A stretch of DNA of 63,977 nt, the filler included, from Ionaspis alba (taxonomy: Eukaryota), in the NCBI GenBank assembly GCA_964255285.1. It is 3 parts of 3 records of this genome, joined end to end, with 100 filler letters (N's around TTAATTAATTAA, not from the genome) between each part and the next. Parts side by side here need not be neighbours in the genome. Positions count along the whole stretch, not along the records: positions 47,048 to 63,977 come from CAXUUL010000331.1; 2 more parts are not named here. The stretch is one strand, 5' to 3'. Under the pieces are notes generated by a model. That model saw only the letters and a program-made list of their open reading frames with translations, searched no databases and had not been told where the DNA came from. This document shows, piece after piece, positions 60,703 through 63,744 of the stretch; positions within the stretch are counted from its first letter, which is position 1; each line of letters opens with the position of its first letter. The translations under genes were made by a program, and so were the position numbers.

Positions 60703-63700
60703 ATGACCACGCGAGGAACCACGGACGATGTGCGGCGGGCCGCACTCTCCCCCAAGCCTAAGGGACGCGGTAAGTTGCCTCGAATACCACGGCCGCTTCA
60801 TCAATGTCGAAACCTCAATTGGACTCAAGCTTGGCGGAAGGCTCATGGAATGGTGTGAAACAGAGAATGCGAAGGATACGCTCTGCCGGAACGTGACCAT
60901 TTATGGTCATTGCCGGTACAAGGATTCAGGTAGTCTACCTCGCAGATTAGAATTATGGGGTCAATTCTGACAAGAATTAAAGGCTGTGCATTCAACCATG
61001 ATCCTGTCAAACCTCATGCGGCTCCACCTGCGGAAATGTGAGCTTCTCTAACTTGACTATGAACATGGAGTTCTCCGCTTACAAGACGTCTGTTTGATCA
61101 AAGTGTGAAGAAGCGCCTCAATGTAGATTCTCCAAGCTTTACGCCATCGCTCGCCGTGAACAGTGCACCGACAAAGGTTGGCGGGCTCTCCCCAAAGGCA
61201 GCAAGTGCCGCTCCATTTAAGCCTAAGGGCATTGGTTCAAGTATTGCGCGCTTTTATTGACCTGTGAGCAACGGATACTGATTCTTGTGATAACAGACGT
61301 CGAGGCACCATTTCAGAAGAAACAATACAACCCGGCCGCTCCTGACTGGGCAATGGGACCTGCCCAGGAAATTCCAGAGTTCCTTCCTCACTCTCAAAGC
61401 ACAACTCCTGCCATTGTAAGTCTCACATTTATATCTTCATAACATTGCACTATCTATCGGAATGGAGACGGACCCCAGAAGAGAACATCCATGGATTTCC
61501 TCAATATCAGAACTCAATTCCGTTCTCCCGAACGCTTGGACTCGTCCTCCAACGATGGTTCTAGCTCCGCCACTCCTATGTCCGTACAGTCCCAGCAAAG
61601 GCATCGTGGGCCCCTCCATGCGGCGAGCCGCCCTGTACGCGAACCCTCGGCCATGACGCCACTCCAATCTGACAAACCATCTACATGTCCAAGAGAAACC
61701 CTGGTCGTCATCAGACTGCCAAATTCTGCTGGGAGACGGAAATCCGTGAGCAAGGTGCTCAACAGTGCTAAGTCTCTCAGTATCGAGGCTACACCATTTG
61801 TTCCTGTACCTTCACAGCCAATGATACGCCCTGTACGCCGCAATCTCAGTGCCGATGCTATTCCTTTCCGACCAATGAACTCAAGTCCTGGCCCTTGCTC
61901 CACATTTCGTGATATATCGCAAGTCCGTGGTTACTCGAGTCCTCCAGGCTCGCGCGCCTCATCTTCTGCAAATTCCCTGAGATGTCCACACCCGGAACAT
62001 TGCAGCGATCCTGGCCGAAGATTCACACCCAGTAATGGACTACCACCTACATCACTTCGGCCACCTCGTTTTCCTGACATGGGAGGAGAATTTCGCTCAC
62101 ATCTTGCACAGAATGAACCCAACGGTAGCCTTACGCATGGTCTCTACGATCCATACGTTACCAATACTACCACGCTGGCAAATCCTGCACTAGGCACACA
62201 TCAGGCATCCATAAATCCTTATGCTCAAGATACGAATACTACCGGAGGTGCTGCATACTACCAAACTCCTTCCTACGCTCAACCGATCCAGTATCATCTT
62301 TACTCTTCTCTCGGACCGCACAGGGAAAATCTATTACCTTATCAACGAACAGCTCATGACTTCTTCATACCTGATGGGCTTCGTGAAGAATTGCAGCGCA
62401 AGTCTGCAGCTACATTACAAACTTTACCCAGTACGTACTCGTTCGTTACGACGCCCTATATGCCTTTTATGACTAATGGTACTAACACATCCAGACTCTA
62501 CATTGCCTCCACAGATAGAACACTTTCACTCTCTCGTACCATTAGACACAACGAATCAGAAGAACGCAGCTCTTTTTGGATATCCTAGCTGGATCTACAA
62601 GGCTGTTTCTAGTAAGGACGGACATACGTACGCCCTGAGGAGACTGGAAGGTTATAAATCCATTTCACTCCTACGACTGGATCTCTGATGCTGACTCGGA
62701 CATATAGGCTATCGGCTTACTAATGAGAAAGCCATTCGGTCTGCTCAGAGCTGGAAACGCATCAGTAACAGTAACATTGTTACCTTCATTGATGCTTTCA
62801 CCAATCGAAGTTTCGGGGACAGCTCGTTAATGTTCGTCACTGATTATCATCCCCTCTCGAAAACTCTGGCAGAGGTTCATCTCACTTCTTCTCGTTTCAA
62901 CGGGAATACTCGTAATCAAGCTGCGCATGTGACCGAGCAGGTTCTGTGGAGCTATATTGTCCAAATATCTAATGCCCTCAAAACAATTCACGGAGCTGGC
63001 CTTGCGGCGAGAATCCTCGAACCCAGCAAAATTTTGCTCACAAGCAAGAATCGTATTCGCCTTAATGCCTGTGCAATTCTCGACGTTGTGCAGCACGAAA
63101 TTTCGAAGTCACTGATTGACCTCCAACGAGAGGACCTTCTCCACTTCGGCCACTTGATCTTATCCATCGGGACCAACAACACCTCTGCCATCCACAACCT
63201 CCCCAAGTCCACCGACCAATTCAGCCGTTCCTACTCGCCCCAGCTCAAAGACCGCCTCTTCTATCTCCTCAGCATGATCGACACCACCAAAACCGCCAGC
63301 ATCGACAAATTTATCAATGGCCTCGATTCCCACCTCATGACTGCCTTCGACGCCTCTCTTCATGCTGATGATCAGCTCACCTCGGATCTCAACCGTGAAC
63401 TCGAAAATTCCCGTATCGTCCGCCTCATGACCAAGCTCAACTTTATTACTGAGAGGCCCGAAAATGGCCAGCAGTGGTCAGAAACGGGAGAGCGGTACCC
63501 GATCAAGCTCTTCCGGGACTATGTCTTCCACCAAGTTGATGCACAAGGGAATCCGGTTCTTGATTTAGGACATGTGATCTCTTGTATCAATAAGTTGGAC
63601 GCCGGGAGTGAAGAAAAGATCGTGCTTACTACTCGAGATGAGCAGATCTGTATTGTGGTCTCGTTCCGTGAGATGAAGAGGGCAGTTGAAGGTGCGTATG

Positions 63701-63744
63701 GGGATTTGGTCAAGGCTGCTAGAAGCGGTGGGAGGGGCGTCTGA
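60703..63744 (+). CDS. PAN3: PAN2-PAN3 deadenylase subunit Pan3 (CCCH finger, PAM2, pseudokinase, C-terminal knob); seven introns
   Basis: CRNVTIYGHCRYKDSG/CAFNHDP, RLNVDSPSFTP, QYHLYSSLGPH, FHSLVPLD, YALRRLEG, VTDYHPLSKTL, WSETGERY..KLFRDYVFHQVD. Confidence 0.97.

Follow-up and report, generated by a model that had tools for sequence, protein, structure and literature searches.

Within the window, i.e., the whole 63,977-nucleotide stretch of Ionaspis alba DNA that was analysed, a PAN3 gene is present, the features of which are collected in Table 1. Depending on the gene model, it encodes a compact product of 649 aa, a long product of 860 aa, or a product of 710 aa with an internal start. Pan3 membership is evident from 97 matches, mostly named PAN3, and from a Pfam match of the last exon to Pan3_PK (PF18101; window 62695-63741, E=5.7e-59, 198.5 bits against a cut-off of 25). 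The N-terminal zinc finger is read as C-x8-C-x6-C-x3-H across exons 2 and 3, a spacing equal to that of Cys14/Cys23/Cys30/His34 in yeast Pan3, according to the available part of PMC4158885. In the same part of that source, canonical fungal Pan3 is composed of a CCCH zinc finger, PAM2, a disordered linker and the pseudokinase/coiled coil/C-terminal domain, an architecture matched by the compact 649-aa model, and weak PAM2, zinc-finger and PKC contacts are argued to add up by avidity (PMC4158885).

Two N-terminal PAM2-type stretches are found. The first, LNVDSPSFTP in exon 4, scores 13.1 bits against the Pfam PAM2 model (E=0.079), which is under the cut-off of 20, and has tblastn matches in 29 metagenome loci; the second, LSPKAASAAPFKP, is kept as ISPKAA.AAPF.P in named relatives.

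Table 1. Features of the PAN3 locus, with positions counted along the window
Feature	Position	Strand	Basis or remark
PAN3 gene, start to stop codon	60703..63744	+	each joined model has a single terminal stop
Exons 2 and 3, CCCH zinc finger LCRNVTIYGHCRYKDSGCAFNH	60864-60929, 60983-61037	+	sequence reading
Exon 4	61104-61234	+	
N-terminal PAM2-type motif LNVDSPSFTP, exon 4	61117..61146	+	Pfam and tblastn
Second N-terminal PAM2-like stretch LSPKAASAAPFKP	61186..61224	+	sequence reading
Exon 5, end EIPEFLPHSQSTTPAI (..STTPAI), phase 0	61297..61415	+	sequence and joined models
GTAAGT donor common to both candidate introns	61416..61421	+	phase 0, after ..STTPAI
Candidate proximal intron, 63 nt, GTAAGT..CAG	61416..61478	+	sequence and script
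In-frame TAA within the 63-nt candidate intron	61440-61442	+	
Out-of-frame ATG upstream of the internal start	61462..61464	+	context cggaATGg; ORF 61420..61656
In-phase CAG, candidate proximal acceptor	61476-61478	+	sequence
211-codon segment, 633 nt; translated in the long and internal-start models, spliced out in the compact one	61479..62111	+	open frame and conservation
In-frame ATG, candidate internal start (MDFLNIR..)	61491..61493	+	base -3 is T
Basic RRKS site in ..GRRKSVSKV..	61734..61745	+	aligned with GKRKSV in P0002
PAM2-type motif 1, SLSIEATPFVP, in the segment	61773..61805	+	alignment and pattern scan
PAM2-type motif 2, NLSADAIPFRP, in the segment	61842..61874	+	the conserved motif
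GCTCAC branch-point motif of the long intron	62095-62100	+	branch A 12 nt ahead of the intron end
Distal acceptor CAG, also the Gln211 codon, then NEPNGSL..DPYVT	62109-62111	+	sequence
Common exon NEPNGSL..QTLP, conserved linker toward the pseudokinase	62112..62430	+	protein and tblastn comparison
Exon, followed by intron 62651-62707	62495-62650	+	joined models
Last exon: pseudokinase, coiled coil, C-terminal domain, stop	62708-63744	+	Pfam and joined models

Open frame and splice signals between exon 5 and the common exon

The stretch between exon 5 and the common exon measures 696 nt (3 x 232) and has a donor, a branch point and an acceptor with the phase kept. An earlier note on this DNA had called this intron unusually long, which holds within PAN3, where the six other introns span 53–94 nt; the positions it gave for the donor, the in-phase CAG, the in-frame ATG and the distal acceptor were likewise confirmed by sequence and script. 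Its description of a stop-free segment of 211 codons was borne out as well: the PAN3 frame is free of stops for 223 codons from 61443, the other two frames contain six stops each across the 696 nt, and at least 211 open codons in the PAN3 frame were reached in only 3 of 5000 dinucleotide-preserving shuffles.

The donor may also be joined to the proximal CAG. The sole CTNAY of the resulting 63-nt candidate intron lies 10 nt from the donor, as opposed to 9–22 nt from the 3' end in all six other PAN3 introns. Regarding the internal start, an ORF-type database protein (P0001) begins at ATG 61491, while the out-of-frame ATG at 61462 lies in good context and opens an overlapping frame of 65 codons. 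The starts of Xylographa-type ORFs align 13–14 residues ahead of a PQxL anchor; such an aligned start methionine is a hint only, because ORF callers force a start M and MAFFT aligns ends.

Third-position GC content (0.44 in the segment, 0.35 in an undoubted neighbouring exon, 0.58 in the last exon) is without discriminating power, since undoubted exons themselves span 0.35 to 0.58. Strain-level differences (four in the segment, two synonymous and two protein-changing; none of five protein-changing in exons 4 and 8) are too few to weigh. Two runs aligned to the locus consist of contigs that pass through every intron with no joints and are, hence, genomic. A search of positions 61300-62300 against Rfam for a hosted RNA returned MIR8139 as the sole match (E=0.3), which, at 19.5 bits, stays below the gathering score of 90; there is thus no sign of one.

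Comparison of the segment, its motifs and its distal end with relatives

PAM2 is defined, in the part of PMC2854688 available, as a motif of 12 residues with a hydrophobic residue at position 3, N/S at 4, P/V at 5, invariant A7 and F10, and P12. Both KSLSIEATPFVP and RNLSADAIPFRP agree with this definition at L3, S4, A7, F10 and P12, while position 5 is I or A instead of P or V. The earlier designation of the segment motifs as PAM2-like is, hence, backed by the published definition and by their rarity—a strict PAM2-type pattern has three matches across all six frames of the whole window (127,950 positions), two of which are these motifs—but not by the Pfam model PF07145 (PAM2), which scores neither of them at E up to 10 and matches one of 36 ORF-type sequences (E=0.22), the model being 18 positions long and weak matches being dropped by the HMMER filters. 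With the two-motif peptide as query, a sequence search of the PDB yielded only mitoribosomal uL4m at E ~1, i.e., noise. By inference, the segment motifs would bind Pab1.

The ORF-type set comprises 36 sequences, namely the window and 35 cluster representatives, and in all 35 relatives an equivalent extension runs through the segment; P0002, for instance, aligns over query positions 20-317 with 52% identity in an all-against-all HMMER comparison. A PAM2 pattern upstream of the junction is found in 22 (strict) or 28 (loose) of the 36 sequences. In motif 2, A127, F130 and P132 are invariant in 11/11 sequences of the first alignment, and S136, F142 and P144 (the same residues in a numbering from 61443) in 10/10 sequences. 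Of the two additional motifs that had been claimed, both are present, but only motif 2 is conserved outside the window; at the position of motif 1, most relatives have a different conserved motif, RRAVSFESGL. Taken together, the comparison supports a coding role of the segment, which is conserved together with one PAM2-type motif. A word-indexed search with the 211-aa segment alone against longer proteins gave no match, and one with an alignment, in the length band of 1032-2945 aa, gave a single Tilletia protein. In the metagenome scan, tblastn with the segment had no match at E<=1e-3, and an open segment was present in none of 35 PAN3 loci, which served as the non-coding comparison.

The distal end of the segment follows a pattern of its own. 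Gln is the last segment codon in 33 of the 36 aligned sequences and lies one position further in two of the remaining three, and a dipeptide of the [ASTP][QHY] type, as would be translated from GCT-CAY or GCT-TAY, occurs exactly at -6/-5 in 23/36 sequences against 14/6430 background positions, both being kept within an otherwise unconserved disordered stretch. In ORF-bearing relatives, these signals were scored on protein, so that the CAG codon and CTNAY are deduced from protein alone, and the 36 sequences are related by descent, their counts being non-independent events. Within these bounds, selection seems to act on the distal branch point and acceptor in ORF-bearing species.

In the phylogenetic tree, the window groups with the PAN3 of Ptychographa and Xylographa (support 99/93), and this group is sister to Squamulea, Wetmoreana and Fulgogasparrea (support 93/96). 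All seven rows of this clade carry the ORF; the feature is, judging from these sequences, common to the Xylographa/Ptychographa and Teloschistaceae lineages. The six annotated gene models of the clade comprise one compact model, four that start inside the segment and are without the zinc finger (two Xylographa, Wetmoreana, Fulgogasparrea), and one, Squamulea P0101, that joins exon 5 to the segment. The compact one is Ptychographa P0151 (..VPPTI|GETNGSL), whose downstream sequence is shared with ORF P0011. The compact Pan3 splice, which the earlier note had given for other Pezizomycotina, is therefore real in relatives, both in Ptychographa and in the loci L015-L020, where a non-coding intron occupies the matching phase-0 PAN3 position.

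The introns of L015 (735 nt), L017 (539 nt), L019 and L020 (542 nt each) resemble that of the window (696 nt) in their phase-0 position, length range, donor (GTAAGA in L015, GTAAGT in L017-L020) and branch motif; they differ in their closed frames with many stops, the lack of PAM2, and their tree placement with Aspergillus and Penicillium. These loci have intron ends of GCTCAT, ACTCAC or GCTCAC plus 9 nt plus CAG, with the GCTCAY-type motif 12–13 nt ahead of CAG, and L015, L017 and L019 share the branch-point module of the window. Read in frame, such ends give AHVDYQ|GD, THVELQ|GD and AHVDLQ|GD, with a stop 6–7 codons upstream in L017 and L019. Since the Q|GD pattern is present in closed, non-coding introns, the amino-acid pattern reflects a nucleotide-level signal; compact relatives have L or M, not Q, before GD, and this residue derives from exon 5.

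Readings of the locus

Because the long intron also reads as conserved coding sequence with PAM2-type motifs, the gene probably makes two Pan3 forms in this lichen-type fungus. With a probability of roughly 0.55, we regard the 633-nt stretch as a dual-use region inside an ancient phase-0 PAN3 intron. Use of the donor together with the distal branch point and acceptor would remove all 696 nt and result in the compact 649-aa Pan3 with the zinc finger, two N-terminal PAM2-type motifs, the pseudokinase and the C-terminal domain, while in another transcript the same DNA would be translated. Two routes to the latter are conceivable and are rated about equal. Via the proximal acceptor at 61478, the 63-nt intron would be removed, giving 860 aa with four PAM2-type motifs; alternatively, translation of an internal transcript from ATG 61491 would result in a 710-aa product that has its own PAM2 motifs, but neither the zinc finger nor the N-terminal PAM2. 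Against the proximal acceptor speak the lack of a usable branch motif in the 63-nt candidate and the four of six gene models that leave exon 5 unjoined to the segment; against the internal start speak the good-context ATG at 61462 and the T at -3 of ATG 61491. That both Pan3 products are made is what we infer from these sequence features; the likely effect would be a changed number of Pab1 molecules per Pan2-Pan3, or the removal of poly(A) recognition by the zinc finger, by which deadenylation would be tuned. It also counts against dual use that a CTNAY followed by CAG could arise by chance (by rough estimate, 5–10% per sequence). Furthermore, exon 5 frequently ends in Q[LM] in compact relatives, and a Gln near the junction could, accordingly, conceivably be required at the protein level.

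The main rival reading, rather doubtful but not negligible, is that the segment is a constitutive exon, with 61416-61478 as the only true intron and the 211 codons always contained in an 860-aa Pan3; the compact model would then result from faulty annotation, and GCTCAC..CAG at the distal end would be a remnant or coincidental. The 63-nt GTAAGT..CAG intron is of usual size for PAN3 and takes out the sole in-frame stop with the phase kept, the segment is conserved coding sequence, Squamulea P0101 has just this joined structure, and the exon 5 tail of the window has lost the F[DE]xxQ[LM] ending of compact relatives. Yet a constitutive exon accounts poorly for the missing branch motif at the place where the six other introns have theirs, for the retention of Gln and the branch-shaped dipeptide in unconserved surroundings, and for the same end pattern in truly non-coding introns; moreover, five of the six public gene models do not choose this structure.

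Improbable is a split gene, in which splicing of the long intron does not occur at all, exons 1-5 encode a small protein with the zinc finger and PAM2 that is terminated by TAA 61440, and pseudokinase-bearing Pan3 comes solely from a separate transcript with ATG 61491. The stop eight codons past the donor, the start within the segment in four of the six annotated relatives, and the need of a protein without N-terminal PAM2 motifs for those of the segment would fit such an arrangement, whereas the kept consensus donor, the apparently conserved distal branch point and acceptor, the phase-0 end of exon 5 as in compact relatives, and the out-of-frame ATG at 61462 do not. That the stretch is a plain long intron, with frame and motifs arising by chance, is the least credible reading, even though L015-L020 have non-coding introns at this position (539-735 nt) and the stretch is annotated as intronic in Ptychographa. 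The rarity of such an open length in shuffled sequence, the fall of two of the three strict PAM2 matches into this stretch, and the open extension of 35 relatives, in which A, F and P of the motif are conserved, all oppose it; conservation refutes it unless the ORFs of the relatives are artefacts of one assembly pipeline.

Relation to known Pan3 systems and significance

Poly(A) shortening is started by Pan2-Pan3, the recruitment of which proceeds via weak, additive contacts (PAM2-MLLE and zinc finger-poly(A)). The mammalian long and short isoforms invoked as a precedent are in print as human Pan3L and Pan3S, which, in the part of PMC5558910 available, were shown by RT-PCR, bind PABP differently and have opposite effects on deadenylation. 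Like the window, the human system has one PAN3 gene with an optional disordered N-terminal segment beside a PABP-docking motif; the human element, however, is described there as a cassette exon of 55 aa that itself lacks a PAM2, located just upstream of a single PAM2 (PMC5558910), whereas the window segment, known from sequence alone, would add 211 aa downstream of the N-terminal motifs, contributes PAM2-type motifs of its own, and is part of an intron otherwise removed whole. It is, thus, no human-type cassette exon, being contiguous with the downstream exon and lying past the N-terminal PAM2.

Canonical Pan3, as far as the available part of its description goes, has one PAM2 region per chain, in contrast to up to four PAM2-type motifs, or a zinc-finger-less form, that would be possible in the window. 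Additional PAM2 copies raise MLLE affinity or give redundancy, e.g., in eRF3, where two overlapping PAM2 motifs have one MLLE bound (available parts of PMC2854688 and PMC4829321); the segment motifs, 23 residues apart, could instead engage two MLLE domains. In the literature on Pan3 with PAM2, isoforms, lichens or Lecanoromycetes, the feature was not found among the matches listed.

At this place, the PAN3 models publicly available for lichen fungi contradict one another, with three structures among six models. The locus would exemplify splice signals that persist within codons and can be recognised from an amino-acid pattern. If a lineage switches PAM2 number or the zinc finger from one gene, it would offer a natural experiment on how valency sets deadenylation and a counterpart, of independent origin, to the human Pan3L/Pan3S switch. 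Tentatively, in the ancestor shared by the Xylographa/Ptychographa and Teloschistaceae lineages of lichen-forming fungi, an ancient PAN3 intron may have gained a PAM2-bearing frame, which would since have been kept as both an intron and an alternative first coding exon. If this is true, a Pan3 with the zinc finger and one lacking it, both with a separate site for docking on PABP, would come from a single gene, and the codons of the form lacking the finger would at the same time spell out the branch point and acceptor.

The PAN3 gene and its three models

The PAN3 gene lies on the + strand at the 3' end of the window; it encodes a CCCH zinc finger (C-x8-C-x6-C-x3-H) in exons 2-3 and the N-terminal motifs LNVDSPSFTP and LSPKAASAAPFKP in exon 4, with a Pan3_PK (Pfam) match on the last exon (E=5.7e-59). 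The splice and start positions of the earlier note were all borne out by the sequence, and three models are distinguished (Table). Apart from the long intron, the remaining six introns measure 53-94 nt. Intron 4 (61235-61296) has two in-frame donors 6 nt apart, GTTCAA at 61235, used in the models, and GTATTG at 61241, giving ..KGI/DVEAPF.. or ..KGIGS/NVEAPF.., respectively.

Table. Models and features of PAN3 in the window
Feature	Position	Strand	Description
Compact model		+	696-nt intron removed; 649 aa, translates cleanly
Long model		+	63-nt intron removed; 860 aa, translates cleanly
Internal-start model	from ATG 61491	+	710 aa, translates cleanly
LNVDSPSFTP	61117-61146	+	canonical fungal motif
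Donor GTAAGT	61416	+	phase 0
Long intron	61416-62111	+	696 nt
Candidate short intron	61416-61478	+	63 nt
Candidate proximal acceptor CAG	61476-61478	+	in phase
Segment	61479-62111	+	211 codons
Motif 1	61773-61805	+	SLSIEATPFVP
Motif 2	61842-61874	+	NLSADAIPFRP
GCTCAC	62095-62100	+	8 nt before distal CAG
Distal acceptor CAG	62109-62111	+	followed by NEPNGSL..DPYVT
Common exon	62112-62430	+	NEPNGSL..

Conservation and motifs of the segment

Searched exhaustively with HMMER, the 317-aa translation of the exon matched 169 proteins, many of which are ORF-type calls on fungal contigs running from within the segment across its junction with the common exon; database protein P0002 shares 52% identity over query positions 20-317. 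Eleven aligned sequences all share A127, F130 and P132 of motif 2 as well as Gln211, and among 36 sequences (the window and 35 cluster representatives) a PAM2 pattern occurs upstream of the junction in 22 (strict) or 28 (loose), those lacking it being mostly short calls. Pfam reports no domain over the segment, which looks like a disordered linker with short motifs. Judged from sequence, the segment is coding. The observation of the earlier note is borne out, and its proposal of Pan3 isoforms with more PABP-binding sites, or lacking the zinc finger, is supported in part. Motif 1 shows no conservation; its place is taken in most relatives by RRAVSFESGL, a conserved motif of another kind.

Both motifs fit the 12-residue PAM2 definition of PMC2854688 at L3, S4, A7, F10 and P12, whereas position 5 is I or A instead of the P or V described there. 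The 18-position Pfam PAM2 model reports neither motif and matches one of the 36 sequences (E=0.22); hence, the resemblance stands by the published definition, not by the HMM.

At 61842 the window has A, while two genomic contig runs matching this region both have G, so that motif 2 reads DLSADAIPFRP; this D, outside the core PAM2 positions, matches P0002. LNVDSPSFTP carries Ser where PAM2 reputedly has an invariant Ala, which motifs 1 and 2 possess. The Phe-to-Phe spacing of the N-terminal pair (26 residues) and the segment pair (23) is alike and might reflect duplication. In P0016, an ORF-type relative of 496 aa, a KSFS[AD][DE]AEPF.P-type unit is repeated 4-5 times; in some lineages, the PAM2 module has multiplied.

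The long intron and its distribution

A phase-0 intron occupies the same PAN3 position in the metagenome loci L015, L017, L019 and L020 (735, 539, 542 and 542 nt), with GTAAGT or GTAAGA donors, many stops and no PAM2 in its frames, and GCTCAT/ACTCAC/GCTCAC plus 9 nt plus CAG at its 3' end; by this comparison the long intron appears to be real. Translated in frame, these non-coding ends read AHVDYQ/GD, THVELQ/GD and AHVDLQ/GD; in L017 and L019, a stop precedes them by 6-7 codons. At the last position of the segment, 33 of 36 ORF-bearing sequences have Gln (in two of the remaining three it follows one residue later), and 23 of 36 carry [ASTP][QHY] at -6/-5, against 14 of 6430 background positions; in compact relatives, the residue preceding GD is L or M, supplied by exon 5, not Gln. 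The simplest reading is that the dipeptide and Gln are the branch point and acceptor seen via the genetic code and still under selection, and the long intron would thus still be spliced out in species keeping the frame open, as far as the relatives' protein sequences indicate.

By maximum likelihood on the C-terminal domain (a tree of 40 rows), the window clusters with Ptychographa and Xylographa (99/93), a group whose sister is formed by Squamulea, Wetmoreana and Fulgogasparrea (93/96), and all seven rows of this clade have the open segment; the L015 group falls with Aspergillus and Penicillium (98/90). For Ptychographa, ORF P0011 is identical downstream to the annotated model P0151, a compact one (..VPPTI/GETNGSL), but also has an upstream extension. 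Since the intron recurs at this place in other loci (short in L002, L004, L013 and L014), it is old and its coding content lineage-specific.

In locus L032, ~1095 nt separate the PAM2 exon from the common exon, exceeding the window's gap. Penicillium models disagree at the homologous spot (P0171 vs P0035, P0177-P0179, P0182, P0186, P0197 and P0210), with 649 aa and ..EFVPQGFEHVTPLQGNGNGG.. vs 653-718 aa and added residues before ..PLQGNGNGG, which suggests an intron read through by some annotations. The Sarea resinae model P0166 (621 aa) probably also reads through it, with ~67 residues between ..FDTLQM and ..THHQ/GDASATGNF and a branch-point-like THHQ at their end.

Alternative readings and Pan3 function

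The best reading, at a probability of roughly 55%, is a dual-use intron/coding region that would yield two Pan3 forms. That the segment is a constitutive exon is less likely, if still a serious alternative; a split gene is improbable, and chance is most improbable of all. The PAN3 frame is open for 223 codons through the segment, with six stops in each of the other two; at least 211 open codons arose in 3 of 5000 dinucleotide-preserving shuffles, and the strict PAM2-type pattern has three matches in 127,950 six-frame window positions, two being motifs 1 and 2. Antisense to the segment, the minus strand carries two long open frames of 124 and 138 aa (61437-61930), probably as a by-product of stop-poor composition.

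Under the dual-use reading, two routes to the segment-bearing form are about evenly balanced. Splicing to the in-phase proximal acceptor would remove the sole in-frame stop together with an out-of-frame ATG in good context (61462), and the Squamulea model P0101 links exon 5 to the segment. The internal start is favoured by the position of the only CTNAY in the 63-nt piece, 10 nt from the donor, whereas each of the six other introns has one 9-22 nt from its 3' end. It is also favoured by the annotated relatives, since four out of the six (two Xylographa, Wetmoreana and Fulgogasparrea) start within the segment, without the zinc finger; related ORF starts align as well, which could be an artefact. 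A Pan3 form without the N-terminal PAM2 would require another copy of its own, and this would account for retention of the segment motif.

The closest known case is human Pan3L/Pan3S, which, according to PMC5558910, differ by a 55-aa cassette exon directly upstream of PAM2, in PABP binding and in their opposite effects on deadenylation; in contrast, the optional part in the window is larger, carries its own PAM2-type motifs and is nested in an intron. The avidity of weak PAM2, zinc-finger and PKC contacts, argued by Wolf et al. (PMC4158885), offers a plausible reason why an altered motif number or loss of the zinc finger would matter.
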